Shown: positions 15,447 to 52,267 of the stretch, piece by piece | Layout of the letters: each line of letters opens with the position of its first letter | Numbering within the stretch: position 1 is the first letter of the stretch | Source of the DNA: a bacterium | GTDB taxonomy: Bacteria > Vulcanimicrobiota > Xenobia > Xenobiales > Xenobiaceae | DNA: 64,000 bases | Direction: 5' to 3' | Assembly (NCBI GenBank): GCA_030535355.1 | Contig: JAUNIO010000002.1 | Coordinates: 8,781-72,780 of the forward strand | Notes under the pieces: generated by a model | The model's input: only the letters and a program-made list of their open reading frames with translations | Databases searched by the model: none | Told to the model about the DNA's origin: nothing | Position numbers and translations under genes: made by a program

Positions 15447-15447
15447 T

Positions 15448-15957: not shown

Positions 15958-15959
15958 GT

Positions 15960-17324: not shown

Positions 17325-17699
17325 ATGCTGACAAGTTTAGGCAAGTTTTTGAGAAAACTGCGCATAGACAGAGGAGAGATACTACGCGACATGGCGGACA
17401 AACTTGGCGTTACAGTATCATTTCTCTCTGCTGTTGAAAATGGCAAAAAAAGAATGCCCTCATTATGGAATAACAGAATCTGTGAGCTATATAGCCTGGA
17501 TATACATCAGCAAGAATCTTTTACAAAAGCGATAGCTGAAACAGAAGATACCATTGAAATGAATTTAACTTCAGCCAGCGCCAACAGACGGGAATTAGCT
17601 ATTGCTTTCGCGCGCTCTTTTCACAATATCGATACTGAGCAGATAACTGCCATTCATAAAATACTACAGAAAAGGAAGCAAAGCAATGACCAGCATTAA
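17325..17699 (+). CDS. XRE-family helix-turn-helix transcriptional regulator.
   Basis: The N-terminal HTH (LRKLRIDRGEILRDMADKLGVTVSFLSAVENGKK) and a GGAGGTGA RBS support the 17325 start. Confidence 0.7.
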   Translation: MLTSLGKFLRKLRIDRGEILRDMADKLGVTVSFLSAVENGKKRMPSLWNNRICELYSLDIHQQESFTKAIAETEDTIEMNLTSASANRRELAIAFARSFHNIDTEQITAIHKILQKRKQSNDQH

Positions 17700-35403: not shown

Positions 35404-35497
35404 CCTTAACTAAATAACATTGCTCAAATCATCACTATAGGTTTATAATGCAAAGGTATCGGGGACCTAAGCATTCCCCGTGCAGTGAGGAGACAAC

Positions 35498-37124
35498 CAT
35501 GCAAAACAATTCCGTCAAGGCTTGGCTGGGCCAAGCGCGCCTGCTCGTTCTGGCGCTGATAATCGGGATGTCGCTGTGGCAGAGCGTCCCTGCTCTGGCA
35601 GCCCCTTCAGCGAAAGAACTCAGCGAAAGTTACCGTTTTATCGACCAAGCTTTCAATAAGCTGCAAAAAGAAGCCTTAGAGGAAAAAACGACTCTAGAAT
35701 TGGTCAACGCCAGCTTAGACGGCATGGTTCTCTATGTGGAAAGCCAGAAGTTAGACGCCAGCTTTATCAAACACGCCCCTGCCGGTTACAGCGATAAACA
35801 GGCCAAAGAATACCTGCGCAAAATGCTGGTCAAAACGGCCACCACCTATCCTAAGCTTTACGAAAAGCAGCGTCTGACCATGGAAGCGGTCAAAGGTGCC
35901 ATGAATTCCATCGACGCCTATACCGCCTATCTCGATCCGGAAGCCTACAAAACCCTGCAGGATACCATGGCAGGCGGCAATTTCGGCGGCATCGGGGTCG
36001 TCGTGCGCAAAGATCAGGATACCAAACAGCTGATTATCGTCGAACCCATGCCGGATACCCCAGCCATGCGCGCTGGAATCCGCGCCAAAGACCGTATCAT
36101 AAAAATCGGCGGCAAAGACGCGCAAGACCTCAGCGTCTCCGACGCTTCCAAATTAATGCGCGGCGAGCCTGGCACCTCGGTCACCCTCACCATCCAGCGC
36201 GGCGACGACAGCCATCCCTTTGACGTAACGCTAGTGCGCGAAAAGATTCACGTTTCCACAGCGACCGGAGAAGTTATCGAAGAGCAAGGCCACAAAATTG
36301 GCTATGTCAATTTATCAATTTTTGGCGAAACCACCAACCGCGAGTTAGAAGCCATTATGCGCGACTTTGACAAACAAAATGTTGAAGGCTATGTGCTCGA
36401 TGTCCGCAACAACGCGGGAGGTTATGTTACAGCTGCTATCGACGTCTGCTCTAAATTCTTGCCCCCCGGCCAGCGCGTCACTTCCATCAACCCGCGCGTA
36501 GGCAAAGAAAGCGTGCGCACTTCCCGGCCTACCGGCATCCGCCGCACCAAACCTTTAGTAGTCTGCGTCAACGGCTTATCAGCTAGTGCCTCAGAGATCA
36601 CTGCAGGGGCGATGAAAGACCTCAAGCGCGGCACCTTAGTAGGCGTTAAGACTTTCGGCAAAGGCAGTGTGCAGAACGTATTCCCTGTGCGTTTTCCCGG
36701 TAAAGAATCATCGGCGTTCAAGATCACTATTGCCCACTATCACACTCCCTCCGGGCATGACATCAACAAAATGGGCATCACCCCCGACGTTATCGTAGAA
36801 CTCCCCGAAAAGCCGATAGAAGGCGAAAAATACGATGCCCAAAAGAAGGCAGCTATCAATGAGCTGATCAAAAAACTGGGAGATACCAAGAAAGAAACTG
36901 CTGCCCAGGCCACTGCCTCGGCCAGCAGCGATACCGTAGCAGTCAGCGGCTTAATCGAAGAGCGCGCTTATATAGACAAACAGCTGAACGGCAAGGAATA
37001 CTCCATCGAAAAATGCCATATCGACCGCCGCGGCGATCAGCTTACAGAAACCGTCACCGTTAAAACCAAAGACGGCCAGATTCACCAGTATAAGTTCGAT
37101 ATCTCCTCAGTATTGAGCTTATAA
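35498..37124 (+). CDS. ctpA: Carboxyl-terminal-processing S41 peptidase (CtpA-like) with a PDZ domain.
   Basis: The start at 35498 has a GAGGAGAC RBS and a signal peptide. It has a PDZ domain (GDRIIKIGGKD) and S41 motifs (VLDVRNNAGG, GLSASASEITAGA, TFGKGSVQ). Confidence 0.8.
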
Positions 37125-37191
37125 ACACAGACGATAACTGCCTGCGGGCGGCTGCTAAGGCAGCGCTTGCAGGCTCAGCTTGGGTTAGAAT

Positions 37192-38892
37192 ATGAATTCC
37201 GACAGCACCAAACAGCCAACGCCTGCCTCTGAAACCGTTTCGGCTTCTGAAAAAACGAGCAAAAAATTTTCCTGGCCTTTGTTCTGCAAGCAAATGCTAA
37301 TAGCTTGCTTATTGGGAATGTTTCTCGGCCTCATACTCTCCCATCCCCTGCATTATGCTGCGGATAAAGTCGAAGAGCATCTGACAGATCGCCGCGAAAG
37401 GGAAACATACGGACGCGTCCTGCCCGAAGAAATGCGCACTATTGAGATCTCTTACCAATTACTGCGCAACAATTTCTATCGGGCCATTGACTCGCAGGAC
37501 CTGCTGAACGGCGCTCTAGTGAGCATTAATATCGCCTGTGAAAACGCCCAAGATAAAAAGGCGAAAAAGACCGAGAAGCCGAGCGATAAAAAGAACGGTA
37601 CTCAGACTAAATCTACTTTAAATCCCTCTCCCTCTCCCTCAGTTTCCCCTGCTTCCAGCGCGACTTCGTCTTCCAATATTTCTCCCAGTCCTTCTCCCAC
37701 CCCCTCCAGATCAGCCGTGCAAACCTATCAAGAATACGCCAAGCTGACAGCTGAAGCTCTGCGCACTGCCAAGACAAAAATAATCTATCCTTTGTTAGAC
37801 GCCCAAGACCTAAGCGAAGACGAACTGCTGAAACAGTTCACCCAAACCGTGCTCAAAGCGATGGATGATGGGATTATCAGCAAAGATAAAATATGCTATA
37901 GCGCTTTATGCGGCATGACTATCGCCACAGCCGATCCCTACAGCACGGCTTTAGATAAAGATGAGACCCGTGAACTCAACGAAGATTTAGGCAATGAAGA
38001 TTTCTGCGGTATTGGCGTTTATATTGAAGCCGATATGCGCAGCAACAAACAGCTGACCGTTATTGAGCCTATTGACGGCAGCCCAGCCGCCCAAGCCGGC
38101 CTGCAGACCGGCGATCGCATCACCAGTATAGACGGGCGGCCTACCAAAGACATGAGTTTAGAATTGGCCGCGAAAGCTATCCGCGGGCCCGAAGGCAGCA
38201 AAGTTAAGTTAACCATTGCCCGTTCCCAAAGCCAAGAATTCACCGTAGAAATCGAACGGAAAAAAGTCGGCAAGAAGAGCGTAACCTCAAAAATGCTTCC
38301 GCAGACAGTAGGCTATGTCCGTCTGCGCTATTTTGGCCGCGATACGGGCAAAGACTGCCGCGAAGCGCTGCTGGCGCTGCTCGAAAAGAAACCCAAAGCT
38401 ATCGTTCTCGATCTGCGCAATAACCCCGGCGGTTCTGTAGAGGAAGCGATAATAGTGGCCTCGCAGTTTTTGCCAAAAGACCAGCTGATAACCAGCGTAG
38501 AGACCCCGCGCACGGGACGCCATGACGTTTACAAAGCTATAGGAGAACCGATTCCCCCGCTGCCACTGGCAGTGCTGATCAACGAATATTCCGCCAGCGC
38601 TTCGGAAATTGTGGCAGGGGCTATCAAAGACCATCGCCGCGGGGTTTTAGTAGGCGAGACCACATTCGGTAAAGGCAGTGTGCAGCTGCTGCGCAAGGTA
38701 GGATGTGATATGTCCCTCAAATTCACCATCGCCCATTACCTCACCCCTAACCTCCGCGATATTCACATGAAGGGCATAGAACCCGACTTTATTTGCGAAG
38801 CTCCTTTTTCCAACCGCTTAGGAGACAGCGACGACCAACAGCTGCAGGCAGCGCTAAAACAGCTTGAGCAGCTGAAGCGCGATAAACAGTAA
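37192..38892 (+). CDS. Second S41 peptidase paralog (PDZ + S41) with an N-terminal TM helix and a Ser/Pro-rich linker.
   Basis: DLRNNPGGSVEEA, EYSASASEIVAGA and TFGKGSVQ support the S41 call. It is paralogous to the upstream gene. Confidence 0.75.
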   Translation: MNSDSTKQPTPASETVSASEKTSKKFSWPLFCKQMLIACLLGMFLGLILSHPLHYAADKVEEHLTDRRERETYGRVLPEEMRTIEISYQLLRNNFYRAIDSQDLLNGALVSINIACENAQDKKAKKTEKPSDKKNGTQTKSTLNPSPSPSVSPASSATSSSNISPSPSPTPSRSAVQTYQEYAKLTAEALRTAKTKIIYPLLDAQDLSEDELLKQFTQTVLKAMDDGIISKDKICYSALCGMTIATADPYSTALDKDETRELNEDLGNEDFCGIGVYIEADMRSNKQLTVIEPIDGSPAAQAGLQTGDRITSIDGRPTKDMSLELAAKAIRGPEGSKVKLTIARSQSQEFTVEIERKKVGKKSVTSKMLPQTVGYVRLRYFGRDTGKDCREALLALLEKKPKAIVLDLRNNPGGSVEEAIIVASQFLPKDQLITSVETPRTGRHDVYKAIGEPIPPLPLAVLINEYSASASEIVAGAIKDHRRGVLVGETTFGKGSVQLLRKVGCDMSLKFTIAHYLTPNLRDIHMKGIEPDFICEAPFSNRLGDSDDQQLQAALKQLEQLKRDKQ

Positions 38893-38900
38893 CCACAATC

Positions 38901-40862
38901 ATGGACACGCCAAATTCAGTAGAATATTCAGTTCAAGATTCAGCCCTGCTGGAAACGGCGGGATTGACTCACCCGGCTTTGGCGGAAAAACTGCGCGGCC
39001 TGCCCCATAAACCTGGCGTCTATCTGATGCTGGACCGCAAGCAGCGCATTATTTACGTGGGAAAATCATCCAATCTCAAGAACCGCGTCAGTTCCTATTT
39101 CCAAAGCGGTACGCAAATTTCACCGCGCATCCGCTGGATGGTCAGCTTAGTCGATAATTTTGAAACAATCGTCGTCGATTCCGAAATGGAAGCCTTGCTG
39201 CTAGAGAACAATTTAATTAAGCAGCACCGGCCTTTTTTCAATGTGCTCCTGCGGGATGACAAAAATTATCCCATGCTAGAGATGTCGCTAAGCGAGCCAT
39301 TCCCCAGACTGCGCTTGGTGCGCCGGGCCCGTCATCCCCGCAATCGCTATTTCGGCCCCTACACCAGCGCCAAAGCTTTGCACCACGTGCGCAAAGTCGT
39401 GCAAAAAGCCTTTCATCTGCGCACCTGTACCCACAAGCTGGATAAACCGCTCAAAGCCCCCTGCCTAAACTATCATATACATCTCTGCGACGCTCCCTGC
39501 ACAGCCAAAATCAGTCAGGAAGAATATCGCGAGCAGGTGCGCGGCGCTATTGATTTTTTAGAAGGCCGCACAGCTCACGTGATCAAACGCCTGCAGGAGG
39601 AGATGAATCGCGAAGCCGAATGCTGGAATTACGAACGCTGTGCGCAGCTGCGCGATCTCATCGCCTATTTAGAGCACATTTATTCCGAACAGAAGGTCAT
39701 GCTGCCTCAGGCAGTCGATGAAGATTATATAGCCGTCGCCGGAGACAATTTCCAAAGCTGTGCTATAGTGTGGCAGATTCGCCAAGGCAAACTCTTAGGC
39801 CAGCACAGCTTTGTGCTCAATTCCCAGCTCGATAGCGGCCTGCCCGACACCTACCGCGCCTTTATTCTGCAGTTTTACGATAAAGGACAGCGCCCCCCGC
39901 AGCGCATTATAGTGGGTACTCTGCCCAGCGAATCCGAGCAGATAGCTCAGTGGCTAAGCGACAGGCGCGGCCGCTCCGTACGCCTTACGTCGGAACAGCG
40001 CGGCCTGCGCCAGCGCATCCTGCACATGGCCTTAAACAATGCCCAAGAGCATCTGCGCCAGGAACTTAACTCGCCCTCCCAGCCTCTGGTGCGCAGACAG
40101 GCCCTCAGCGATCTGCGCGAAGCCTTGGGACTCACAGGCTATCCCTGGCGCATGGAATGCTACGACATTTCTAATACGCAGGGCAAACAGCCTGTAGCCT
40201 CAATGGTGGTATTTGAGCAAGGCCTTCCCCGCCGCGCTCATTATAGGCATTTTCGCATCCAAGGCCTGGATACGCCCAACGATTTTGCTATGATGAAGCA
40301 GACTTTGCAGCGCAGATTTGCGCATCTTTTTCCCGATGCCAAAGAAGAAATCCAGCCGCTGGGCACAGGCAAGCGCTGGCAGCGGCTGCGCGGCAAAGCC
40401 GCTGTCAGCAGCGAAAGCCTGGAGACCATCCCCGATCTGCTCATCATCGACGGCGGTAAGGGGCAATTGGGCGTAGCTGTTGAAGTTTTGGAGCAGTACG
40501 GCTTATTAGGTACGGTCGCCGTGGCTGGATTGGCCAAACAAAACGAAGAACTGTATCTGCCCGGTCAGTCTTTCCCGGTAACTCTGGACACCAATTCCCC
40601 AGCTTATCTTCTGGTCACGCATATTCGGGACGAAGCGCACCGTTTCGCGATCACTTTTCACCGCCAGCTGCGGCAAAAGACCATACGCTCTTCAGCCTTA
40701 AACGAGATCAAAGGGCTGAGCGAAACTAAAAAGATCGATCTGCTCAATGCTTTTCAAAGCCTTAAGAAACTTCAGGAAGCTTCGGTAGAAGAGCTGCGGC
40801 GCGTTCCTGGGATTGGCGCTATCCTGGCCCAACGTATATATTCATTATTGCATCATGATTAG
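38901..40862 (+). CDS. uvrC: Excinuclease ABC subunit C.
   Basis: It has an N-terminal GIY-YIG domain (GVYLMLDRKQRIIYVGKSSNLKNRVSSYF), UvrBC, RNaseH-like and HhH domains. 653 aa. Confidence 0.9.
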   Translation: MDTPNSVEYSVQDSALLETAGLTHPALAEKLRGLPHKPGVYLMLDRKQRIIYVGKSSNLKNRVSSYFQSGTQISPRIRWMVSLVDNFETIVVDSEMEALLLENNLIKQHRPFFNVLLRDDKNYPMLEMSLSEPFPRLRLVRRARHPRNRYFGPYTSAKALHHVRKVVQKAFHLRTCTHKLDKPLKAPCLNYHIHLCDAPCTAKISQEEYREQVRGAIDFLEGRTAHVIKRLQEEMNREAECWNYERCAQLRDLIAYLEHIYSEQKVMLPQAVDEDYIAVAGDNFQSCAIVWQIRQGKLLGQHSFVLNSQLDSGLPDTYRAFILQFYDKGQRPPQRIIVGTLPSESEQIAQWLSDRRGRSVRLTSEQRGLRQRILHMALNNAQEHLRQELNSPSQPLVRRQALSDLREALGLTGYPWRMECYDISNTQGKQPVASMVVFEQGLPRRAHYRHFRIQGLDTPNDFAMMKQTLQRRFAHLFPDAKEEIQPLGTGKRWQRLRGKAAVSSESLETIPDLLIIDGGKGQLGVAVEVLEQYGLLGTVAVAGLAKQNEELYLPGQSFPVTLDTNSPAYLLVTHIRDEAHRFAITFHRQLRQKTIRSSALNEIKGLSETKKIDLLNAFQSLKKLQEASVEELRRVPGIGAILAQRIYSLLHHD

Positions 40863-40886
40863 TTATTCAAGGGTACACTCATAACC

Positions 40887-43217
40887 ATGACAAAACAGAT
40901 ACCGATCTCCTTAAAAGAATTATTGCTGGCGGCTATTTTATGTATAATTAGTATTGTAATCATTTTCTATCCGGCTGTATTTCAAGGACATCTGATATAC
41001 CAAATTGCCGAAGCGGGTTCCGATTCACTCGATCTCAATATTACACGGAGGTATTTGGCTGCACAATCTATACTAAAATACGGTGAGATTCCTCTATGGG
41101 AACCTAGAATAGGCTGCGGGGTTCCGCTGCTCGCCGAAAGTGAAGCTGGCATATTTCATCCGACCTTTTTGCTTTTCTTTCTAAATAATCTTACTCTAGC
41201 AAACAATCTCACCATTTTTTCTGCCATTTTAATAGCCATGCTGGGAAGCTATTACTGGTGCAGATGCTTACAGCTAGATCCCCTTCCGTCAGCAGTATCA
41301 GCTTTCGCCTATGGATTAGGCGAAACATTTCTGCTGAGAACTTCAGCCTTAAATATCATACACGTTTTATGTTGGCTTCCCCTCAGTTTGGCTCTAATCT
41401 ACTTGGCAATACAAACCAGCAAGAAACGGTATTCTTTATTATTAACAATCGTTTGGACACTGCAGCTCTTAGCCAGTCACTTCAACATGGCAGCAATATG
41501 TTTGATTTGCTGCTGCATCTACACTGTTATTCTAATAGTGTATAATATGCTTCAGCACCATACTCATCCTTATAAAGTAACCGTCATCAGGCTACTCTTA
41601 GCCTTATTTTTCGCCTTTTCGCTGAGCCTAATTCAAATATTGCCGACACATGAATTTACACAGCATTCAATTCGCAGAGAGACAAAGACATATGAAGCTT
41701 ATAATAAAGTATGCAACTCCTCTCTAACCTGTAATATGTTAGCAATATTTATCAATCCTTTTTATCGGTCATGCCCAAGTACATTAACGAATTCCATGAC
41801 TAACGACAAAATGGGGTTATATGCACACGATACTTTTCAATATATAGGTTTACTGCCTTTTATTCTCTGCTTTAACACCTTTGCTAAAAAAAGACGCCCC
41901 ATAGCAATAAGCCTATGGATTTTAGTGTTCTTTTTCTTCATCACATCCCTCGGGCCGCGTTACGGAATTTACTATTTATTATTTAATTACTGCCCTTATT
42001 TTAGTTCTTTTAATAACCCTGGACGTTTCGCCGTTCCTATGATGTGTACCATGGCTATTTTAGCTGCTATAGGAGCGCAAAACTTATATGATTTAATTAA
42101 GCTGCGTTTTAACAATCGTCTATCTAAGGTATTGTTGTCAGCTATCATAATCATTACTCTATTTGATTTAGGCTATGTCAATTCTCAAATTCAAGGTTAT
42201 CTTCCCGCCAATTGGAGCCGCCGGCCTGAGTTCCTAAATGGTATCAACAATTATCAGCGCATATATTCCCCTTATAATTTTTTAGCTTGGCAAATCGATA
42301 TATTGTCTATAGACAAAAAGCATTATCTGCAAACAGCAGCTTTCCATCACCGCGACCTCTTAAGTCCTGGTATGGCTCCTTTATGGGATGTTTACGCTCC
42401 CGATGATTACTTATTGTACGGGCTTGGTATTGTCGCTGATGAAGCCGCAACACGGCAAATAGCCTTATACAGTCTTATGCACCACATTATCCCTCTAGAT
42501 ATTATCAACGGCATAACCCTAAGTTTGCCAGTCAACAGCAATACAATACGGCAGCTCAACGATTGGCTGCGCATATTAAGCATCACTCATATAATAACTC
42601 CAATGCCATTGTCAGAGAACTATTCTAAATCTCTGTTCAAAGACATTAAACGCATTGCCTTGTCTGATTCCCCTAATAACTATGTATTTATATACACTAT
42701 AGCTAACCCCATAAATAAAATTAGGCTGGTACCAAAACTTCAATCTAAGCTACCAGAAAATGCTTTAAATTTAGAAGAAATTATACAAAACGGCAGCAGC
42801 CATAACCGCGAAAGCCTTATCTCCATCTTTGACCAACGTTCTTATGAACCTGATTTTTCCTCTCCGGCCAATATAGGAAAAACTGATATAGTTCTTTGCA
42901 CAAACAACAAGATTAAAGTCAGCACATCTTGTGATATAAACGCACATTTAGTTATAAGCAATACCTACGACCCAAATTGGCAGGCATCTATAGACGGCCA
43001 CCCCACTAAAATTAGGCTTACAAACCTCTTTATGCAAAGCATAGATATACCGTCAGGCCGCCATACTGTTGAACTGCAATACATTTCGCCGGCATTTCAG
43101 CTGGGTTTGCGAATCAGCATGATTGCCCTTGTGCTTTTTTCTCTTTATGCTTTTGTGCCAAACTGCCGAATTAAGTATTCACGTTTATTACGCAGGAAAA
43201 CGCGTGCTGAACTCTAA
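40887..43217 (+). CDS. Large polytopic membrane protein, YfhO-like (GT-C-type glycosyltransferase-like), with a C-terminal extracytoplasmic domain. Low GC (~40%).
   Basis: 776 aa with at least 12 hydrophobic helices in the N-terminal 450 aa, then a soluble C-terminal region. Its composition is strongly AT-shifted relative to its neighbours. Confidence 0.55.
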   Translation: MTKQIPISLKELLLAAILCIISIVIIFYPAVFQGHLIYQIAEAGSDSLDLNITRRYLAAQSILKYGEIPLWEPRIGCGVPLLAESEAGIFHPTFLLFFLNNLTLANNLTIFSAILIAMLGSYYWCRCLQLDPLPSAVSAFAYGLGETFLLRTSALNIIHVLCWLPLSLALIYLAIQTSKKRYSLLLTIVWTLQLLASHFNMAAICLICCCIYTVILIVYNMLQHHTHPYKVTVIRLLLALFFAFSLSLIQILPTHEFTQHSIRRETKTYEAYNKVCNSSLTCNMLAIFINPFYRSCPSTLTNSMTNDKMGLYAHDTFQYIGLLPFILCFNTFAKKRRPIAISLWILVFFFFITSLGPRYGIYYLLFNYCPYFSSFNNPGRFAVPMMCTMAILAAIGAQNLYDLIKLRFNNRLSKVLLSAIIIITLFDLGYVNSQIQGYLPANWSRRPEFLNGINNYQRIYSPYNFLAWQIDILSIDKKHYLQTAAFHHRDLLSPGMAPLWDVYAPDDYLLYGLGIVADEAATRQIALYSLMHHIIPLDIINGITLSLPVNSNTIRQLNDWLRILSITHIITPMPLSENYSKSLFKDIKRIALSDSPNNYVFIYTIANPINKIRLVPKLQSKLPENALNLEEIIQNGSSHNRESLISIFDQRSYEPDFSSPANIGKTDIVLCTNNKIKVSTSCDINAHLVISNTYDPNWQASIDGHPTKIRLTNLFMQSIDIPSGRHTVELQYISPAFQLGLRISMIALVLFSLYAFVPNCRIKYSRLLRRKTRAEL

Positions 43218-43269
43218 CTAGAGGCCGAATCTAATCTTATTTTAGCATTTAATTTTTAGGAATAACAAT

Positions 43270-44658
43270 ATGTTTATTACTCCCAAACTATGCCGCAGCC
43301 TCACCCAAGAGACCTATCGTTTCAGAGGGGCGCGCAATATCCTCATCATAGGATCGCATCCTATGATAACCAGCCGTCTGCTCAAACATCTGCGCGATGA
43401 AGACACCCTGCTCATCTGCGAGCCGCACAATGATGCGTTCCTTAAAATGCGGCGCAAACTCGCCAAAAGACGCTTAAAAAAGAAAAAATGCCGCGTTAAG
43501 CTTTACAACATGCACCCCTGGGAACTGGAGCAAAAGCCTAGATTTAATTCCATTATTTTAACCCAGGACCTCTCCCCCCTGAGCGATGACGCCATAGTGC
43601 ACATTATGGAATCCTGTCAGGCCCTGCTTCTGCCCGGCGGCTGTCTGAGCTGCTGCGAACGGGCTTTTGCCCGGCGCATTCGACGCTTCAGCCTAGCTAA
43701 CGGCAAATTCATCCGCAGCCAGAAAAACATAGACGCTTTAGACCACTACGTGGATTCATTCCAGAATTATAAAGAGACCGTCTGGAATGCGGTTTTTCCC
43801 ATTTGGGTACACAACCTGCAGTTCACCCCTCAGCGCAGCTCTATGGCTAAAGACCTGCAGCCTTCAGAAGAGCGCTATTCTTTCTATATAAGCAAATTAA
43901 AGGTCTCCAAAGACGTACTCAAATTCATACCCTGGCTAGCCGCTTCTTCCGCGCTATTGAAAAAGCTCAAAGCTTCGTTCTGGTATTTGCCCCTGATTAT
44001 TATGAGCTTTATTATCGCCTTTTTCCGCGATCCTAAACGCTCAATTCAAGCCCAGCCAGACGAAGTTCTTTCGGCCTGCGACGGCGAAGTCATGGATGTT
44101 TCCACCGTTAGTGAGCCCTGTATGGGGCCTACCCCCTGGCTGCGCATTTCCGCTTTCCTCTCCATAACCAATGTTCACATCAACCGTTCTCCCGTAGCCG
44201 GAAAAGTTCTGGAGCAGTTCGAAGTCGAAGGGCGCCACGTCGTAGCCAACAAGTACCGCGCCGTGCATAACCATTCTTGTTACACCGTTATAGAAACGGA
44301 TTACGGCCAAGTTGTGGTCGCCCAAAGAGTCGGTTTGCTGGCCCGCCGTATCTTCAACTGGGTGGGCCGTGGCGAATTAGTGGCCCAAGGCGAACGTTAC
44401 GGTTTGATCCGCTTAGGTTCCCGCACCGATATTTATCTGCCCATGGAACGCTATTCCATTCTGGTAAAACCAGGGGACAAACTCGTAGCTGGACGCACGG
44501 TTGTCGCTAAACGCCTATATACTCCAGAGCAGTTAGCAGAAAATGCTCAGCAGCGCCAGGCCGAGATCAATGCCCTCTTGGAAACCGCTCCTCTCACAGC
44601 TGAGAGCGAAGACGGCGATCCCCACCACATGGTTATGCGAGAAACTGAAGAAGACTAG
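43270..44658 (+). CDS. Fusion protein. The N-terminal domain is a degenerate Rossmann / SAM-methyltransferase-like fold. The C-terminal domain is phosphatidylserine-decarboxylase-like (pyruvoyl-type; LGSRTD cleavage-site-like motif).
   Basis: The C-terminus has FFRDPKRS...SPVAGKV...GLIRLGSRTDIYLP, typical of the PSD family. The N-terminus has IIGSHPM and LLLPGG motif-I/III-like segments. Confidence 0.55.
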   Translation: MFITPKLCRSLTQETYRFRGARNILIIGSHPMITSRLLKHLRDEDTLLICEPHNDAFLKMRRKLAKRRLKKKKCRVKLYNMHPWELEQKPRFNSIILTQDLSPLSDDAIVHIMESCQALLLPGGCLSCCERAFARRIRRFSLANGKFIRSQKNIDALDHYVDSFQNYKETVWNAVFPIWVHNLQFTPQRSSMAKDLQPSEERYSFYISKLKVSKDVLKFIPWLAASSALLKKLKASFWYLPLIIMSFIIAFFRDPKRSIQAQPDEVLSACDGEVMDVSTVSEPCMGPTPWLRISAFLSITNVHINRSPVAGKVLEQFEVEGRHVVANKYRAVHNHSCYTVIETDYGQVVVAQRVGLLARRIFNWVGRGELVAQGERYGLIRLGSRTDIYLPMERYSILVKPGDKLVAGRTVVAKRLYTPEQLAENAQQRQAEINALLETAPLTAESEDGDPHHMVMRETEED

Positions 44659-44681
44659 AAGATTAGGAGAATAGTTAGATT

Positions 44682-45872
44682 ATGTCACTAGATGCCGCCG
44701 CGTGCTGCAGCGCTTTTAATTTGACTTTCCCGCAGCTCTGCGAAGTGCGCGATGCTCTGTGTGAACGCATCCAAGAGGGACTCAGCTGTGAAGGCGCTGA
44801 GATACAGGCATTGCCGGCCTATTTACCCCTGCCCCAAAAAAAGCTAAACGGCACAGCGCTGGTAATCGACATAGGCGGGACCAATATGCGCGCTGCTCTA
44901 GTTGAGTTACGCGACGGAACCCCTCGCATAAAGACAGGCCCTGTGCAGGGACAAGTTGCAACAGGCCGTGATTTTCCCGTCAGCGCTCAGGAATTCTTCC
45001 GTTCTCAGGCCGAGCTGGCGGCACAGCTGTCTCCGCCTGCAGGAATACCTGTAGGTTACTGTTTCTCTTATCCGGCCCATATTACTCCAGACGTAGATGC
45101 TAAACTCTTAGCCTGGACTAAAGGCATTAATATCCCAGATGTGGTGGGCACATCTGTGGGGGCCGGTTTGCGGCGGGCTTTAAAGGAACAGGGCATACAG
45201 CCAGGCCGTTTAATCGTGCTCAACGATACTGTAGCTACTCTTTTAGCCGGCACTGGAGCTTTTGCCGGCGACTATGACCGCTTTATCGGCCTCATTGCCG
45301 GCACGGGCATCAATATGGCTGGATTTCTGCCTTCCGCGCTCATCGGCAAACTGAACAAACAGGTATATCAAGCCCCAGAAATCGCCATTAACTTGGAGTC
45401 CGGTAATTTTAAGCCGCCTTTTGCGACCAAATGGGACGATATGCTAGACCAAGCCTCGGACAACCCCGGCAGACAGCGTTTCGAAAAAGCCTGTTCCGGC
45501 TATTACGTACCTTTCCTATATCAGACTGCCGCCCGCGATATCGGCCTGGACATCGGCAATTTTAATCCCATACAGGGAACCGGGCCTTTAGTGACATTGG
45601 CCTTGGAAGACCATGATGAATTGGCCCTGGCTTTGCTCAAGCGTTCCGGACGGCTAATTGCAGCGACAATTGCAGGTTTCATGAAAGCTATGGGAGCGGG
45701 CAATTTTGCAGTAGTCGCCGAAGGAAGCCGCTATTGGAAAGACCCCACACAGGCCCCGCTGGTTCACGAACTGCTGAGCCAGCTCATCCAGCCGGATCAA
45801 AAATTCACTATCAGCGCTGTAGAAAATGCCAACTTCATAGGATCGGCCTGCGCCGTCCTCGGTTTAGAGTAA
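44682..45872 (+). CDS. Hexokinase-family sugar kinase.
   Basis: It has the hexokinase-type phosphate-1 motif (LVIDIGGTNMRAALVEL) and lacks the ROK Cys cluster. 396 aa. Confidence 0.6.
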   Translation: MSLDAAACCSAFNLTFPQLCEVRDALCERIQEGLSCEGAEIQALPAYLPLPQKKLNGTALVIDIGGTNMRAALVELRDGTPRIKTGPVQGQVATGRDFPVSAQEFFRSQAELAAQLSPPAGIPVGYCFSYPAHITPDVDAKLLAWTKGINIPDVVGTSVGAGLRRALKEQGIQPGRLIVLNDTVATLLAGTGAFAGDYDRFIGLIAGTGINMAGFLPSALIGKLNKQVYQAPEIAINLESGNFKPPFATKWDDMLDQASDNPGRQRFEKACSGYYVPFLYQTAARDIGLDIGNFNPIQGTGPLVTLALEDHDELALALLKRSGRLIAATIAGFMKAMGAGNFAVVAEGSRYWKDPTQAPLVHELLSQLIQPDQKFTISAVENANFIGSACAVLGLE

Positions 45873-46054
45873 GCTCCATTTTCCCAGTGCGCCGTATTAA
45901 GTTTGCTACACTTCCAGCTTAACGCCTCATTTATGGGGCGTGCCGGACAGCGGTTACCGTTTTCTCGGATGCTGCGCCTTCCATAGCGCAGCACCAAGGG
46001 GGAATGGACGACTAGCTGCGATCTTCCTACATTAATATAGAGAGGAAATCGCCT

Positions 46055-47608
46055 ATGAATCGTCAGCAGCGTCGCCTATCTGAAGGCGCTCTTTACAATG
46101 ATATGTACCAGTTCACTATGGCCCAGCTCTATTTTAGAGCCGGCCTGCACGAACTGCCCTCGCACTTCGACCACTTCTTTCGGAAATATCCCAACTACGG
46201 AGAGCATCAGGCCGGTTACTGCATTAACGCTGGCATCGGCTGGCTGATGGACTGGATGAAAGATTTCCGCTTTGAAGACGAAGATATAGCCTGTCTGCGC
46301 AGTGAGCTCGGCCCTGACGGCAAACAGGTATTCGGAGAAGATTTTTTAGCTTGGCTGCAGCGCGAAGGCAACTTTGAAAGTTTAACGGTACAGTCCATGG
46401 GTGAAGGACGCGTCGTCCATCCCAACACCCCCATAACCAGCGTCGTAGGCCCTCTGGCTATGGCCCAAATATTAGAGACCCCCCTGCTCAATGCCCTAAA
46501 TTTTCAAACCTTAATCGCTACCAAAGCCGCCCGCGTGCGCCATAGCGTCAAGAGCAGCTTGCTCATGGAATTCGGCATGCGCCGCGCTCATGGCCTGGGA
46601 GCCAATCAAGGCTGCCGCGCCGCTTTAATCGGGGGATGCGATTTTACTTCTAATGTTGGCCTATCCTACGCCATGGGTTTGTCTCCCAAAGGCACTCACT
46701 CCCATGCTATGGTACAGACCTATTTAGCCCTGGGCAAAAGCGAAGAAGAAGCTTTCCAAGCTTATGCCGACATGTACCCCACCAACTGCCTTTTGTTAGT
46801 AGATACCATCGACACTCTAGGAAGCGGCATACCCAACGCAATTAAAGTGTTTGAAAGACTGCGGCAGCGCGGCTATAAACCGGTGGGCATCCGCATGGAC
46901 TCCGGCGATTTGGCCTATTTAGCTATTCAGGCTGCCCGCATGTTAGACGAAGCTGGGTTCCCAGATACCTGCATAACGCTATCCAACGATCTCGACGAAT
47001 TGACGATTTGGCAAATTCACGCGCAGATTATGGAAGAAGCTGCCCGCAGCGGTGTAAATCCCGAGAATCTGATCCGGCGTCTGACCTACGGAGTAGGCAC
47101 TCGCTTAATCACTTCCAGCGGCCAGTCTTCGTTAGGCGGAGTCTATAAGCTGGTGGCTGTCAAGCCGCAGCAGGAATGGGTTCCAGCCATTAAACTCTCC
47201 AACTCGATAGCCAAAGTTCCCAATCCTGGGCATAAATTAGCTTGGAGAATTTATGACAAGCGCGAACGCGCCACCGCCGATTTAATAGGTTTAGCCGACG
47301 AAAAACTGGACGAGCCCTGTCTCATTCTGCACCATCCCACGGAAAAAGGCCTATGCCGCCGCATTCCTCAGAGCAACATCAGCCGTATTGAACCTCTGCT
47401 AAAAACCGTATGGGATCAGGGCACAATTAAGTACAGCCCCAGTTTAGAAGAGATCCGCGCCCAGCGCGTATCCGATCTTGAAGCTCTGGACACCGGCGTT
47501 CTGCGCCTGCGCAACCCCCATATTTATCACGTGTCTTTGACCACCAAACTGCTTAAGCTAAAGCAAGAGCTCATCGCCAAATTTACCGGCGAACGCCAAG
47601 AGCAGTAG
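46055..47608 (+). CDS. pncB: Nicotinate phosphoribosyltransferase.
   Basis: It has NAPRTase family motifs (YQFTMAQLYF, GMRRAHG, GTHSHAMVQ). 517 aa. Confidence 0.8.
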   Translation: MNRQQRRLSEGALYNDMYQFTMAQLYFRAGLHELPSHFDHFFRKYPNYGEHQAGYCINAGIGWLMDWMKDFRFEDEDIACLRSELGPDGKQVFGEDFLAWLQREGNFESLTVQSMGEGRVVHPNTPITSVVGPLAMAQILETPLLNALNFQTLIATKAARVRHSVKSSLLMEFGMRRAHGLGANQGCRAALIGGCDFTSNVGLSYAMGLSPKGTHSHAMVQTYLALGKSEEEAFQAYADMYPTNCLLLVDTIDTLGSGIPNAIKVFERLRQRGYKPVGIRMDSGDLAYLAIQAARMLDEAGFPDTCITLSNDLDELTIWQIHAQIMEEAARSGVNPENLIRRLTYGVGTRLITSSGQSSLGGVYKLVAVKPQQEWVPAIKLSNSIAKVPNPGHKLAWRIYDKRERATADLIGLADEKLDEPCLILHHPTEKGLCRRIPQSNISRIEPLLKTVWDQGTIKYSPSLEEIRAQRVSDLEALDTGVLRLRNPHIYHVSLTTKLLKLKQELIAKFTGERQEQ

Positions 47609-47756
47609 CTTAGAGCACTTTAGTATTATTCAGAGCTTCCCTAGTTTTGGCGCACATGTTTGCGCCTGCGTCGGCTTCTGCGGCAGGAACATGCGGATCG
47701 TTTCGGTCTCATACTCACTCCCGCAGAAGCGGCAATACACAAAAAAGGTGGTATAT

Positions 47757-48542
47757 ATGTTCCGCAAACATCTGATCTGCGCATCACTGCTAATTTCCGG
47801 GCTGTTCCTGCCGGTTCAGCATCCTCTCTGCGCCCAGCCCTCAGGTGCCTCCCCTGCTGCGCCCTCGCTCATGGCTAGCGCGTCTGCAGAACGCTGCCCC
47901 ATCGTCGTCGATTTCAGCAATTTCTACCGCGATACTTACAAACAGACAGAAAAAGATTATATAAGATTTAATCCCAACGAGACCCGGCCTTCCGCCGATT
48001 CCCTGGAAGCTTGGACTAAAGAGGCCATGCCCACCGCGCTTAGCTACTCCCGCGATGGCGGCCCCTGGTCCCAGGATATTTACTCAGCCAAGCAGCAGTT
48101 TATTATCCCCGATCAGCCTGCAGGCCAGCACGGCTACAGCCTGCGCCTGACTTTCATGTCTGGAAAAGGGCCTTCTTATGCCTATACTTATTTTAAACCC
48201 ATCCTGGGAGCAGACAAAAAAACGGTCTTAGCCTTAGACGGACAGGCAGTCAAAGGCATGAAGCGCAGCAAAGAGATTACCGTTCAGCTTTCCCAAAAGC
48301 TCATGCAAGGCAATCCCCATTTGCTTTCCGGCCAAACCGTAGCCGTATATGAAGAAAAAGAATATCCCGTGAATACCCAGGGCTCATTCCGCCTAACCGT
48401 TCCCTTTGAGCCGCCGCAGACCCTGGAGATTCACTACAAATCTCCGCAGAATTATACGCTTAATATTTACAAGCGCGATTTTGCTGTCACTCCACAGAGC
48501 AGCAGCACAGTCGTCGTGGATATGATGGATGTAGCCGACTGA
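47757..48542 (+). CDS. Secreted hypothetical protein. The signal peptide follows the ATG at 47757.
   Basis: It has an AAGGTGG RBS and MFRKHLICASLLISGLFLPVQHPLCAQ. I recognise no domain. The ORF track starts earlier, at 47691. Confidence 0.55.
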   Translation: MFRKHLICASLLISGLFLPVQHPLCAQPSGASPAAPSLMASASAERCPIVVDFSNFYRDTYKQTEKDYIRFNPNETRPSADSLEAWTKEAMPTALSYSRDGGPWSQDIYSAKQQFIIPDQPAGQHGYSLRLTFMSGKGPSYAYTYFKPILGADKKTVLALDGQAVKGMKRSKEITVQLSQKLMQGNPHLLSGQTVAVYEEKEYPVNTQGSFRLTVPFEPPQTLEIHYKSPQNYTLNIYKRDFAVTPQSSSTVVVDMMDVAD

Positions 48543-49180: not shown

Positions 49181-50359
49181 TTATTTAACTTCTTTCATTT
49201 TGCCGTCTTTGCCAACTTTGTAGCGTTTCTCTCCCCAAACCACTTTAGAGCTAAAAAACGACAGCAGCCACAAAACTGCATAGAAAATATCTTTTATCCC
49301 GGCCAAAAATCCATATCTGGCCAGACGCTCTCCGCCCAAGCGCTTCCATACCGAGATACACCAGCAAGCGCGAATCAGCATCCAGCCCAATAATATCGCC
49401 CAAGACCACCAGGCAAATTGCGAAGCCGGCAGGAGCAGCAATGCCCAAAACATCCCTTGCGTTACGATATAGGCAAAAAATCCCCCCGGACGGCTGACGC
49501 GATAGGTGCGCATCCAGCGCAGCTGATGGCGGAAATACTCCGCAAACGTAGCGCCTTCAGCGACATCCTCAATTACCGTATCGGCCAGCACGATTTTGTA
49601 GCCGCGCTGATATATCTGATGGCCAAGCTGATAATCGTCGGCTAAATAGTCTTTGAACGCCGCAAAACCGCCTAATTCTTCGACAATCTGACGCCGCATG
49701 GCCATTACAGCTCCCAAGCCAAACGTTATGCCCTCAACCTGCCGGGCCACCAAAACTGACGCGGAAAAATCGGCGACGTTGATGCCCTCCCAAATATCCC
49801 CCCAACTTTTCGCACGGCGCACTATATATAGGCAAGTGACCATGCCCACTTTGTCATCGGCAAAAGGCTGAATAACCCGCCGCAGCAAATCGGGAGACGC
49901 ATACATATCAGCATCAGAGAGCACGATGTAATCACCCTCGATTCTCTCCGCAGCACGCGCCACCGCCGCTATTTTACGGTTAGCCCCTTCCAGGCTTTCC
50001 TGGGACCAGACAACAGGAACAGATGTGCCTAATCCGATATGCTCTGGATTGATGCCCTCGACCGGACCTGACGAAGCGAGAACTATCCGCTGTTTTCCCG
50101 GATAATCCTGACAAACAAAAGACCGCAACTGAGCGGCCAAGGAATCGCTGGCTTTATGAATGGGCTTAAGCTGCGTTACGCTCGGCCACAGCGAATTATA
50201 GCATTCCTGCACGGCTTGGCTCGTTTCCGCGATGTCCTCGCCACTGCTGCCCACCTTAGCGCACCCTTTTTGAAAGCGCCAAACTGTAATCCAGCCTAGG
50301 GCCAGGTAGGCGCATGCGGCAGCCACCATAAGTACCAGAGCTGCGCACAGATACGTCAA
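49181..50359 (-). CDS. Family-2 glycosyltransferase with C-terminal TM helices. It resembles hopanoid-associated HpnB/HpnI or ceramide-glucosyltransferase-like enzymes.
   Basis: It has a GT-A fold (DxD-like VLSDADM, QxxRW-like HQLRWMR), C-terminal hydrophobic helices, and hpnA-like and hpnG-like neighbours. Confidence 0.65.
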   Translation of the reverse strand: MTYLCAALVLMVAAACAYLALGWITVWRFQKGCAKVGSSGEDIAETSQAVQECYNSLWPSVTQLKPIHKASDSLAAQLRSFVCQDYPGKQRIVLASSGPVEGINPEHIGLGTSVPVVWSQESLEGANRKIAAVARAAERIEGDYIVLSDADMYASPDLLRRVIQPFADDKVGMVTCLYIVRRAKSWGDIWEGINVADFSASVLVARQVEGITFGLGAVMAMRRQIVEELGGFAAFKDYLADDYQLGHQIYQRGYKIVLADTVIEDVAEGATFAEYFRHQLRWMRTYRVSRPGGFFAYIVTQGMFWALLLLPASQFAWWSWAILLGWMLIRACWCISVWKRLGGERLARYGFLAGIKDIFYAVLWLLSFFSSKVVWGEKRYKVGKDGKMKEVK

Positions 50360-50360
50360 A

Positions 50361-51215
50361 TCAGAGACTCCCTGAGCCTGTCAGATCATTAAGCAAATAC
50401 TGCAAATACAATCTCAGACTATCGCTAGCTTTTTGGGCATTGAGAAACAGACGCAACAAGCCCGGTATCGCTGCGGGCTGACGCAGCGCTTCTTTAACGA
50501 TAGCCATATAGTCTGAGCCGCCAGCACTGTTTTTAAAGCGGTTCAAATCTATAGGCATGGCGAAATCTACATCGTCGGAGACAGACCTGACCGCGAGCCA
50601 GGGAATATCCGCGGCATTCATTATTTCCGCTATGGCAGCGCCTTCCATATCTACTGATGCGGCCCCACTTTCCTTTCCCAGCAGCTTTTTATCTTTGGAG
50701 TTATTAACTATCCTATTGGTGGTTAAGGTAATCTCTTCCCAGCAGCTGCGCATATTGCTGGTAAAACGCTTTTGATCGATCTGCATATTTTTATAAGAAA
50801 AACCTGCATGCTTAGCTACTTCTAAGGCGTTTTTCGGCGGTTCCCAAGAACGCACTTTTTCTAAAGTAGTCTCGCCTCTCCCCTGGGCTTCCAAAATATC
50901 GCTTTGTCGGTAAATGCGGCGCGAAACTACTATATCGCCCACTTTTACACCTTTTTGCAGAGCGCCGCAAAAACCCGCAGACAGCAAAAAACGAGGCTGA
51001 AAATGGCGAATCATCAGCCGGCAGGCTGCACGGGCTTTGTCTTCACCCTGCCCGCTAACCATAACTGCGACAGGCTGAGAATACCAGTAAGCTACACCGC
51101 AGCGGATTCCCGAAACTATATCTGTAGTCCAATCGCTGAGCAAGGCCTTGAAAATTTTTTCTTCTTCATGTTCAGCGACAATCACACCTATGTGCTTAAC
51201 TTTTTTGTCATCCAT
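50361..51215 (-). CDS. PNP/UDP-type nucleoside phosphorylase / nucleosidase family protein (HpnG-, MTAN- or futalosine-hydrolase-like).
   Basis: It has N-terminal KHIGVIVAEHEE and a C-terminal SVDMEGAAIAE motif typical of the PNP_UDP_1 fold. Confidence 0.55.
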   Translation of the reverse strand: MDDKKVKHIGVIVAEHEEEKIFKALLSDWTTDIVSGIRCGVAYWYSQPVAVMVSGQGEDKARAACRLMIRHFQPRFLLSAGFCGALQKGVKVGDIVVSRRIYRQSDILEAQGRGETTLEKVRSWEPPKNALEVAKHAGFSYKNMQIDQKRFTSNMRSCWEEITLTTNRIVNNSKDKKLLGKESGAASVDMEGAAIAEIMNAADIPWLAVRSVSDDVDFAMPIDLNRFKNSAGGSDYMAIVKEALRQPAAIPGLLRLFLNAQKASDSLRLYLQYLLNDLTGSGSL

Positions 51216-51226
51216 TGAGCCTCACC

Positions 51227-52267
51227 TCAACTCTTCTCAAGACAGCTATGCTTATGGACCTGCGCTAGCTTGGGAGTGATAGGAGCATAACCGTTGTCCA
51301 TGAACCACTGCACCGCCCGCTTCAGAGCTTCCTGAGCCGAGCCGGGCTGATAGCCCAGTTCTTCCCGTGCCCGCGTCCAATCAAAAAACATGTACTTACG
51401 AGCCATTTTTACCCCTTCTAAGGGAATGTGCGGCGCACAGCGCAGGATTTTCTCGCACAGGAATGTATCGGCTCCGGCGGCGGCATAGGCGACCCAGAGA
51501 GGCATCTGCCAATTGACCCGAGGCAGCCCGCTGATTTCTGCCAGACTGTCCAAAATTTGCTTAAGGGTCATATCTTCGCCGCCCAAGATGTAGCGCCGCC
51601 CAATTTGGCCGCGTTCTGCGGCTAAAATATGTCCTTTAGCTACATCGCGCACATCGACAAGATTGAGCCCTGTCTGCACATAAGCCGGCATTTTGCCGTT
51701 GAGAAAATCGGTAATTATTTTTCCCGTCGCCGTCGGCTTGCTGTCAAAATCGCCAATGGGAGTGGACGGGTTGACAACGACAGCGGGAATGCCAGCCTGA
51801 GCCGCTTCCATAGCCACTTTTTCCGCCAAAAATTTTGAGCGTTTATAATGGCCAACCATATCGTTTAGACTTACCGGCGTCTCTTCGTTGCCGGGCTGAC
51901 GAGGACCGGGAATTCCCACAGCTGCCACAGACGAAGTTACCACCACTCGCTGCGTTCCCGCCTGCCTGCAGGCTTCAAGCAGGCTGCGCGTTCCCTGCAC
52001 ATTGGAATCGTATATCTCTTGGGGATTTGCAGCCCAAAGACGATAATCGGCTGCGCAGTGAAATACCCACTGACACCCTTTAACAGCTTCTAGCAACGTT
52101 TCGGAAGAGCGCAAATCTCCCTCAATATATTCCACAGAACAGCCACATAAATTGCGGCGATCCGTGGAAGAACGCACTAAAACGCAAACTTCATCTCCGC
52201 GTTCCGCCAATTGTTTAACTAAATGGGAACCTACAAATCCAGCTCCACCGGTAACTAAAATTCTCAA
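51227..52267 (-). CDS. NAD-dependent epimerase/dehydratase (SDR, extended), HpnA-like.
   Basis: It has the Rossmann motif (ILVTGGAGFVGSHLV) and the YxxxK catalytic motif (YKRSK). Confidence 0.7.
   Translation of the reverse strand: MRILVTGGAGFVGSHLVKQLAERGDEVCVLVRSSTDRRNLCGCSVEYIEGDLRSSETLLEAVKGCQWVFHCAADYRLWAANPQEIYDSNVQGTRSLLEACRQAGTQRVVVTSSVAAVGIPGPRQPGNEETPVSLNDMVGHYKRSKFLAEKVAMEAAQAGIPAVVVNPSTPIGDFDSKPTATGKIITDFLNGKMPAYVQTGLNLVDVRDVAKGHILAAERGQIGRRYILGGEDMTLKQILDSLAEISGLPRVNWQMPLWVAYAAAGADTFLCEKILRCAPHIPLEGVKMARKYMFFDWTRAREELGYQPGSAQEALKRAVQWFMDNGYAPITPKLAQVHKHSCLEKS

Follow-up and report, generated by a model that had tools for sequence, protein, structure and literature searches.

The phosphatidylserine decarboxylase (PSD) of E. 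coli cleaves itself at an LGST site, and its autoprocessing residues are D90/D142-H144 (PMC7952604). With a length of about 190-200 aa, the lipid head-group N-methyltransferases PmtA and OlsG are peripheral enzymes that stand alone. The structure of PmtA from A. tumefaciens (AtPmtA, PDB 9ko3) has defined the residues involved in SAM binding and in methylation of phosphatidylethanolamine (PE): the E/DxGxGxG motif occupies positions 58-64, the E84A and D106A variants are inactive, and Y161 forms part of the lining of the head-group groove, beside SAH (PMC12139422). Finally, YfhO, GtlB and PgfM are GT-C glycosyltransferases of Gram-positive bacteria, with roles in lipoteichoic acid (LTA), wall teichoic acid (WTA) and protein glycosylation (PMC5836110, PMC12041528).

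Relatives of all of these proteins meet at the locus analysed here, which lies in a stretch of DNA of 64 kb (hereafter, the window). A gene for a 776-aa YfhO-type protein (40887-43217) is followed on the same, forward strand by a gene for a 462-aa fusion protein (43270-44658), and an ORF check reproduced the limits of both exactly. We consider it fairly probable that the locus encodes a predicted PSD carrying a pseudo-methyltransferase domain at its N-terminus and, separately, a YfhO-type GT-C glycosyltransferase.

A predicted decarboxylase joined to a methyltransferase fold

The initial annotation of the fusion protein as ending in a pyruvoyl-type PSD with an LGSRTD motif holds well. The Pfam PS_Dcarbxylase model (PF02666) matches residues 246-412 with an E-value of 1.5e-33 and 116.5 bits, where the cut-off is 22, and the match runs over profile positions 3-197 of 198. 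Profiles and alignment place the catalytic domain at aa 251-415 (44020-44514), with LGSRTD at L382-D387 (44413-44430) and the predicted self-cleavage between G383 and S384. In an alignment of 31 sequences (A1), G383, S384, R385 and D387 are invariant, as are D271 and H303, which, by motif resemblance, may be the counterparts of E. coli D90/D142-H144. The cleavage-site serine, the residue to be checked across orthologues, is present in 119 of the top 120 homologues, and a [ND]VH[IV]NRxP motif in 115 of the same 120.

These features are shared with the small PSDs and archaetidylserine decarboxylases (PF02666, PRK05305 variants, TIGR00164), and the C-terminal 200 aa fit the whole profile; they include a Gly-Ser site for cleavage as well as a conserved Asp and a motif that contains His, with a membrane hairpin ahead of the domain. 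Like small PSDs, relatives of the fusion are also paired with pssA: in four more distant loci (L089, L090, L091, and L006), a pssA-type CDP-alcohol phosphatidyltransferase gene convergently adjoins the fusion gene. A tblastn search of the 64-kb window found no pssA-type gene. Unlike the small PSDs, the fusion carries about 190 additional N-terminal residues that form a methyltransferase-fold domain, has an Arg instead of a Thr after the Ser (GSR, not GST), and scores below the curated equivalog cut-offs of all twelve NCBIfam PSD/Asd models that match it, down to an E-value of 1e-50 (best 171.9 against 183). It also differs from the solved E. coli PSD in having no detectable sequence match to it. 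A profile search of PDB sequences recovered only methyltransferases and no solved PSD structure for the C-terminal domain, and the top 50 Foldseek matches of the fusion were all methyltransferase-fold proteins, with no PSD structure among them.

As predicted from these motifs, 43270-44658 most likely encodes the PSD of this organism, though not necessarily its only or main one. A membrane-anchored proenzyme would cut itself between G383 and S384, and S384 would be converted into the pyruvoyl group that decarboxylates phosphatidylserine (PS) to PE.

The remainder of the protein was first described as resembling a degenerate SAM-methyltransferase Rossmann fold over about 250 aa. The fold was correctly recognized, and the N-terminal domain has that of a class I SAM-methyltransferase. 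The gene is a genuine fusion rather than a psd gene with a leader region. The methyltransferase core is however shorter, covering aa 1-190 or so (43270-43839), and is followed by about 60 residues that comprise a linker and a putative membrane hairpin (aa 191-250; 43840-44019), with helices at 220-232 and 240-251 in the AF2 model and a topology suggested by model and sequence. At the other end, an acidic tail (aa 416-462; 44515-44655) is poorly conserved and modelled with low confidence; it is 75% identical to that of the closest relative, against 99% for the PSD domain.

A conserved domain without its catalytic residues

The origin of the N-terminal domain is best seen in those fusion relatives in which it is intact. 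Their best NCBIfam matches are OlsG (E-value 4.7e-22) and PmtA (6.5e-22), and their best match among PDB sequences is AtPmtA 9ko3 (2e-10). Two of them, P0016 and P0046 (the latter from Roseiflexaceae), match the PmtA/OlsG HMMs with E-values between 1e-16 and 1e-22 but do not reach the equivalog cut-offs. The intact relatives share with PmtA and OlsG the fold, the xxPT head-group motif, an ExGxGTG loop, the Glu of β2, the catalytic Tyr, and a C-terminal N-x-PP-A/W strand, but the domain is here joined to a PSD through a membrane hairpin. The domain would thus descend from an enzyme like PmtA or OlsG, an N-methyltransferase of lipid head groups, which became joined to a PSD in an ancestor; in many fusion relatives it is still intact.

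In contrast, the clade of the window protein has lost nearly all of the catalytic residues as well as the amphipathic N-terminal helix. AtPmtA positions E58-G64, E84, D106-A107, and Y161 correspond in the window to IIG-SHP, E, HP, and R. Motif I, E-x-G-x-G-x-G as defined for AtPmtA (PMC12139422), is aligned with the degenerate I26-I27-G28-S29-H30-P31 (43345-43362), and H82-P83 and R131 occupy the D106-A107 and Y161 positions, where [SDN][VAI] and Tyr, respectively, are found in the intact fusions. Only the E84 equivalent is retained, as E51 at the end of β2. The first residue of the reading frame aligns with AtPmtA V34, and an in-frame extension upstream is impossible; the domain has neither the N-terminal amphipathic membrane-binding helix nor the xxPT motif. 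In NCBIfam, it has no match to the PmtA/OlsG HMMs at an E-value below 1. Since the domain of this clade has neither the loop for SAM binding nor the adenine contact, and has lost the catalytic Tyr together with the N-terminal helix, it is, judging from the alignment, probably no methyltransferase any more.

Despite these losses, the domain is under strong purifying selection. Between the window and its closer relative, L087, pN is 0.054 and pS 0.705, giving a pN/pS of about 0.08 and a dN/dS of about 0.03, with synonymous sites near saturation. Moreover, 21 residues of the domain are invariant across the degenerate clade, which has 14 members. Because it is conserved in this way, the domain probably has a non-catalytic role, which might be structural, might involve membrane or ligand binding, or might be regulatory, although this is a guess.

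Two other readings of the domain have to be weighed. According to the first, the window protein would be bifunctional, decarboxylating PS and N-methylating the resulting PE to MMPE, DMPE or PC with a divergent but active methyltransferase. The fold, the retained E51 and the purifying selection agree with this, and the likeness of intact relatives to PmtA and OlsG makes the chemistry plausible for the family. The reading is nevertheless unlikely, as it has to accommodate the absence of the ExGxGxG loop, of D106/A107 and Y161 (HP and R131 here), of the PT motif close to the head group and of the N-terminal helix, together with the missing HMM match; all 14 members of the clade have lost these same positions. 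A poor motif I is tolerated by some class I methyltransferases, and residual SAM binding by the domain is therefore possible. The proposal that the gene product could yield a methylated aminophospholipid head group is not supported for the window protein, which is devoid of the residues that AtPmtA needs for SAM binding and PE methylation; the idea fits the intact relatives. For annotation purposes, this gene should not be taken as evidence for methylated aminophospholipids.

According to the second, the domain would be a decaying, functionless relic, and the protein in effect an ordinary PSD with a long leader. Its catalytic residues are indeed gone and it evolves faster than the PSD domain: its identity is 92% to L087 and 68% to L002, whereas the PSD domain reaches 99% and 84%, respectively. 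We nevertheless judge a relic improbable: the low pN/pS and dN/dS speak against it, as does the presence of a full-length domain in every member of two degenerate clades, one of which includes cultured Micromonosporaceae. Further evidence against decay comes from the clade-specific invariant residues W84 and C128, which lie at former pocket positions, and from the fold, which is predicted with confidence in the AF2 model. A conserved pseudo-methyltransferase domain remains the preferred reading.

A low-GC YfhO-type gene in a variable slot

The gene upstream of the fusion encodes a protein with a GT-C membrane fold and a match to the Pfam YfhO model (PF09586; 50.5 bits against a gathering score of 28.5), a model with precomputed matches in 74 of the 83 homologues listed for this protein. 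Asp46 is kept in at least 90% of 25 homologues, at identities down to 18%, and falls between H28-33 and H46-65, two helices predicted in the model. We infer that the stretch carrying Asp46 is the first extracytoplasmic loop and that this residue is catalytic. The protein would then move a sugar from a polyprenyl-phosphate-sugar donor, through Asp46, to an extracytoplasmic acceptor, either a glycopolymer or a protein. Besides the Pfam match, the fold and an Asp past the first transmembrane helix, it has in common with YfhO, GtlB and PgfM an extracytoplasmic β-rich domain and a last transmembrane helix. Unlike them, it fits the Pfam model only over the C-terminal 75 residues or so (residues 671-744), has very low identity to the characterised members, and has no CsbB-like or GtrA-like partner nearby: a Pfam scan of the window ORFs of at least 150 aa, a length below which a GtrA-size ORF would escape, found neither a CsbB-like GT2 nor a GtrA-like flippase. 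The host differs as well, being tentatively a relative of Eremiobacterota: the named UvrC proteins nearest to that of the locus come from Candidatus Eremiobacterota, at 50% identity.

As first noted, this gene is low in GC; the measured values are 39% for the gene and 50-57% for its neighbours. Its GC is 0.390 and its GC3 0.385, whereas the 43 long ORFs of the window have a mean GC of 0.507 (sd 0.046) and a mean GC3 of 0.559 (sd 0.085), and the adjacent uvrC and fusion genes have GC/GC3 values of 0.534/0.604 and 0.510/0.581, respectively. The amino-acid composition of membrane proteins does not alone account for this dip, because HpnN, another polytopic protein of the window, has a higher GC12 (0.484 against 0.393) and GC3 (0.546 against 0.385). 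A comparable case is found in the wzy and wzx genes of O-antigen loci, which are low-GC, hypervariable surface-glycan genes. Like these, the YfhO-type gene is a polytopic glycan-processing gene with a GC far below that of the genome and a divergence far above that of the flanking genes, but it stands singly amid housekeeping genes, outside any glycan gene cluster. It is in this respect an unremarkable case of a variable surface-glycan gene.

The slot that the gene occupies, bounded by uvrC and the fusion gene, is variable, and the gene is a member of an expanded and fast-diverging paralogous family. Further copies of this family are found at unrelated loci, from the same sample as well as in tandem arrays. 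In L087, the YfhO-type protein in the slot is 56% identical to that of the window, and the flanks 83-93%, whereas in L002 uvrC is followed directly by the fusion gene, after a 107-bp gap and with no YfhO-type gene. Horizontal acquisition, as suggested in the initial annotation, is in part borne out by these comparisons: the variable presence of the gene in the slot agrees with acquisition or with rapid turnover.

A third explanation, which we regard as tentative though quite possible, is that the gene has long been resident and that its low GC results from fast evolution specific to this locus, under relaxed or diversifying selection and AT-biased mutation, and not from a recent horizontal arrival. 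The copy in the window and that in L087 are closest to one another, at 56% where other paralogues give 44-48%, and both are low in GC (0.39 and 0.36), which indicates a shared resident orthologue. Other paralogues of the lineage also have a GC below that of their flanks (0.44-0.49), and the surroundings of the gene contain no flanking repeats, tRNA/RNA genes or mobile-element genes; a search for insertion scars gave only short repeats at chance level, and Rfam revealed no RNA genes in the window. Less easily reconciled with long residence are the empty slot of L002 and a GC3 lying 2 sd below the window mean, and a donor lineage was not identified, either way.

The YfhO-type and fusion genes were also proposed to form a single module for lipid or glycopolymer modification. 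They share a strand and are separated by 52 bp in which no terminator-like site rises above background, and their order is common to L001 and L087. The shared strand is weakly informative, because about 30 kb of genes are co-directional here, and a search of 38500-46200 for promoters and terminators yielded no excess over shuffled sequence and is uninformative on operon structure. Synteny lends the module no support, given the absence of the YfhO-type gene from L002, the other, unrelated neighbours of the fusion genes in L003-L007, the four pssA-paired loci, and the location of other YfhO paralogues at unrelated loci. We therefore consider a single functional module very unlikely; the two are neighbouring envelope genes with apparently separate functions. 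A functional link to the hopanoid genes 4.5 kb downstream was considered as well and dropped: those genes are on the opposite strand, and hexokinase, NAPRTase, unknown and GNAT genes intervene.

A widespread family of fused lipid enzymes

Far from being rare, the Pmt-Psd fusion belongs to a large family: hundreds of homologues of about 440 aa are found in Chloroflexota, Eremiobacterota, Actinomycetota and metagenomes, and every one of them carries the uninformative annotation of PSD. The N-terminal domain is intact in most of them; by a regular-expression count, ExGxGxG is present in about 75 of the top 120 homologues and absent from about 45. The tree of the family is a neighbour-joining tree without support values. 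Our literature searches found no paper on the fusion, and nothing informative on PC among the lipids of Roseiflexus.

More speculatively, and on balance doubtfully, the family may couple PS decarboxylation to head-group N-methylation in one polypeptide in Chloroflexota, Eremiobacterota and others, whereas in at least two lineages, the clade of the window and Actinomycetota of the Micromonosporaceae type, the methyltransferase would have become a conserved pseudoenzyme. Its remodelled pocket, with the invariant W84 and C128 in the clade of the window, might bind a lipid or metabolite and thereby control PSD maturation, activity or membrane placement. The syntheses of PE and PC are textbook pathways, and yet it seems that the two enzymes have not been remarked on as a natural fusion. 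Among the pseudo-methyltransferase versions is the PSD of cultured Micromonosporaceae, which makes the role of a dead domain on a pyruvoyl enzyme tractable. If the intact fusions are bifunctional, they would provide a natural coupling of successive steps in membrane-lipid synthesis, and methylated PE or PC would be predicted in phyla where these lipids are unexpected.

Gene context and the YfhO slot

The two open reading frames singled out by the initial annotation, and the drop in GC content of the first, are real. They correspond to a YfhO-like gene of 776 aa (40887..43217, +) and a fusion gene of 462 aa (43270..44658, +), both embedded in a co-directional run of about 30 kb with the order ftsE, ftsX, PcsB-like M23 peptidase, two S41 peptidases, uvrC, YfhO-like gene, fusion gene, hexokinase, NAPRTase, an unknown gene, and GNAT. 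The dip is restricted to the 776-aa gene (GC 0.390, GC3 0.385), against means of 0.507 ± 0.046 and 0.559 ± 0.085, respectively, over the window's 43 long ORFs. It is not due to membrane-protein composition, since the polytopic HpnN gene of the same window has much higher values (GC12 0.484 and GC3 0.546, against 0.393 and 0.385). A second low-GC island (14772-18213, +) carries five short ORFs (GC 0.38-0.47, GC3 0.30-0.48) that match nothing in NCBIfam except for a weak antitoxin/repressor-like hit (spr1629 family) at 17686-18213; possibly, this is an inserted mobile or defence-related element.

The S41 C-terminal processing peptidases (35448-38892, +) are tandem paralogues, 39% identical, the second with a CtpB-like N-domain; directly 3' of ftsE, ftsX, and the PcsB-like peptidase, they lie in a cell-division/wall-hydrolase cluster. 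The hexokinase-family gene (44682-45872, +) is of eukaryote type, with Pfam Hexokinase_1 and Hexokinase_2 matches and none in NCBIfam. It keeps synteny with the fusion gene at loci L001 and L087, and is close by in L002.

The interval between uvrC and the fusion gene is variable in content. In L087 (uvrC 84%, fusion 93%, and hexokinase 83% identical to the window), it holds a YfhO gene that is only 56% identical (GC 0.363), this copy and that of the window being each other's nearest relatives. In L002 (75%, 71%, and 66%), YfhO is absent, and 107 bp separate uvrC from the fusion gene. Around the more divergent fusion genes (45% identity; L003-L007, the last from a human-gut Hadza MAG), the neighbours are unrelated. 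Sample SRR24915802, which contains the exact sequence of the window, encodes three further YfhO paralogues at other loci (44-48% identical to the window copy, GC 0.455-0.464, one tandem pair), and one related contig carries four tandem YfhO genes. These paralogues, at L088 (155-9105), L093 (178-4745), and L092 (5956-8196), share 44-51% identity with one another, with GC somewhat below their flanks. The YfhO gene is therefore a member of an expanded, rapidly diverging family, in a variable slot. It could plausibly have arrived by insertion; a search of its surroundings found neither repeats nor RNA or mobile-element genes. Given the low GC of the L087 copy too, it could, tentatively, be a long-resident gene with fast AT-biased divergence instead, a reading against which stands the empty slot of L002. 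The proposal that this GT-C neighbour forms one module with the fusion gene did not survive the comparison with L002-L007, and nothing ties the two genes functionally.

As for the YfhO-type protein itself, predicted helices H28-33 and H46-65 flank Asp46, which sits in what we take to be the first extracytoplasmic loop and is kept in at least 90% of homologues, down to 18% identity. A GT-C catalytic site would call for an acidic residue in this putative loop. YfhO proteins that have been characterised take sugars from C55-P-sugar donors and attach them, outside the membrane, to lipoteichoic acid or proteins (PMC5836110, PMC12041528). By analogy, the 776-aa protein would carry out sugar transfer of the same kind; its gene is unremarkable. 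A DedA/VTT-domain membrane protein (29125-29787, +), flanked by two large TPR proteins, is encoded 11 kb away. Proteins of this family have been linked to the recycling of polyprenyl phosphate and to lipid flipping, activities that could supply a GT-C enzyme.

Lineage and other genes of the window

The YfhO and UvrC proteins of the window are identical to entries from a MAG contig. The closest named matches of UvrC are from Candidatus Eremiobacterota (50% identity), with those of Chloroflexota, Bacillota, and Armatimonadota next (42-44%), which gives a tentative placement. Hopanoid-associated genes (49181-52267 and 60838-63660, both -) encode an HpnI-like GT21 (TIGR03472, E 8e-73, under cut-off), an HpnG-like phosphorylase, HpnA (441 bits, over the cut-off of 368), and an HpnN-like RND transporter (E 6e-155, under cut-off). 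These genes make it probable that the organism produces functionalised hopanoids and exports them; a squalene-hopene cyclase was not seen within the window. Two overlapping ORFs (7223-9465, +) have Big_2 and BspA-type leucine-rich repeats (LRR_5, E 8.5e-62) of a sort characteristic of host-associated bacteria; they could represent a single gene, read as two through a frameshift or an alternative start. Two conserved ORFs, of 283 aa (47691-48542, +) and 496 aa (21714-23204, +), have no Pfam match, nor has the former any in NCBIfam; it has a 32% identical counterpart at the equivalent position in L002.

The PSD half of the fusion protein

That the C-terminal half is a PSD is well supported by its sequence. 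Residues 246-412 match Pfam PS_Dcarbxylase (E 1.5e-33), and twelve NCBIfam PSD/Asd models are matched, down to E 1e-50, all under their strict equivalog cut-offs. Across 31 aligned sequences, down to 29% identity, G383, S384, R385, D387, D271, and H303 do not vary. Among the best 120 of 391 homologues returned, the cleavage-site serine is present in 119 and the motif [ND]VH[IV]NRxP in 115. E. coli PSD is cleaved at LGST via a D-H-S triad (PMC7952604), and self-cleavage and a PSD substrate are predicted here.

Genomic context points the same way in four other lineages, where a CDP-alcohol phosphatidyltransferase gene of the pssA type convergently adjoins intact and degenerate fusion genes alike (L089, 2463-5959; L091, 5157-7167; L090, 5001-7278; and L006), the classic PS synthase/PSD pairing. 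In L089 (Roseiflexaceae), pssA is followed by a second, stand-alone class I methyltransferase that could perform later methylation steps, and cdsA and uppS are also nearby in L091. No pssA-type gene was found in the 64-kb window.

The methyltransferase-fold half

The fusion to a methyltransferase-fold domain is genuine. Most of the best 120 homologues have 390-480 aa and 85-100% query coverage, and about 75 of them retain ExGxGxG and Pfam methyltransferase domains; these intact fusions occur in Roseiflexaceae, Viridilinea, Eremiobacterota, and many metagenomes. For two of them, the best NCBIfam matches of the N-domain are OlsG (E 4.7e-22) and PmtA of the Agrobacterium type (E 6.5e-22), and the best match among PDB sequences is A. 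tumefaciens PmtA (9ko3, E 2e-10), in an alignment that takes in 'GAxxPTS' near the N-terminus and the 'NxPPA' strand at the C-terminal end.

In AtPmtA, the SAM loop is E/DxGxGxG (residues 58-64), Ala mutants of E84 and D106 lose nearly all activity, A107F strongly reduces it, and the head group lies in a groove lined by A128, I159, and Y161, and near A32-T36 (PMC12139422); a conserved Tyr of this groove is named there as involved in methylation. These columns were read from a family alignment to an AtPmtA fragment. At A32-T36, intact fusions have xxxPT, the window protein begins at the V34 column, and an actinobacterial clade lacks PT (e.g. SDRAV). The E58-G64 loop is E.G.GTG in intact fusions, I26-I27-G28-S29-H30-P31 in the window, and lost in the actinobacterial clade. 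E84 is E or D, E51 (kept), and Ala, respectively; D106-A107 is [SDN][VAI], H82-P83, and varied without Asp; Y161 is Y (F in one member), R131, and D, P, or A. The losses of the window protein are common to all 14 members of its clade. In the actinobacterial group (Micromonosporaceae, Cryptosporangium, Glycomyces, and other Actinomycetota), motif I is gone too, along with E84 and Y161. A neighbour-joining tree of the PSD domain, without support values, places the window clade beside intact P0014 and P0015, separate from the actinobacterial clade, which suggests at least two independent degenerations. The diagnostic phospholipid of Micromonosporaceae is generally given as PE rather than PC, which would fit an inactive domain in that group.

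The methylated aminophospholipid initially proposed is thus well founded for the family, because its methyltransferase half is PmtA/OlsG-like, but not for the window's copy, which lacks equivalents of the SAM loop, D106-A107, and Y161 and is probably no longer active as a methyltransferase. Its domain is nevertheless under clear purifying selection: against L087, pN is 0.054 and pS 0.705 (dN/dS ~0.03, a rough value, synonymous sites being near saturation), with pN 0.008 for the PSD domain. Twenty-one N-domain residues are invariant in the 14-member clade, including W84 (43519-43521, +) and C128 (43651-43653, +), which are not conserved in intact fusions and adjoin former adenine-contact and substrate-groove positions, hinting at a remodelled binding site. 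The N-domain thus looks maintained and remodelled, not decaying; our guess is a structural, membrane- or ligand-binding, or regulatory role.

Judging from sequence, the window's fusion gene most likely encodes an ordinary enzyme of PE formation that carries an unusual appendage. Fusions of this kind are common and already annotated, but our literature search found no paper describing them. The family joins a PSD to a PmtA-type methyltransferase, each part of a known kind, with a pseudoenzyme derivative, and is worth a bench test by a lipid biochemist.
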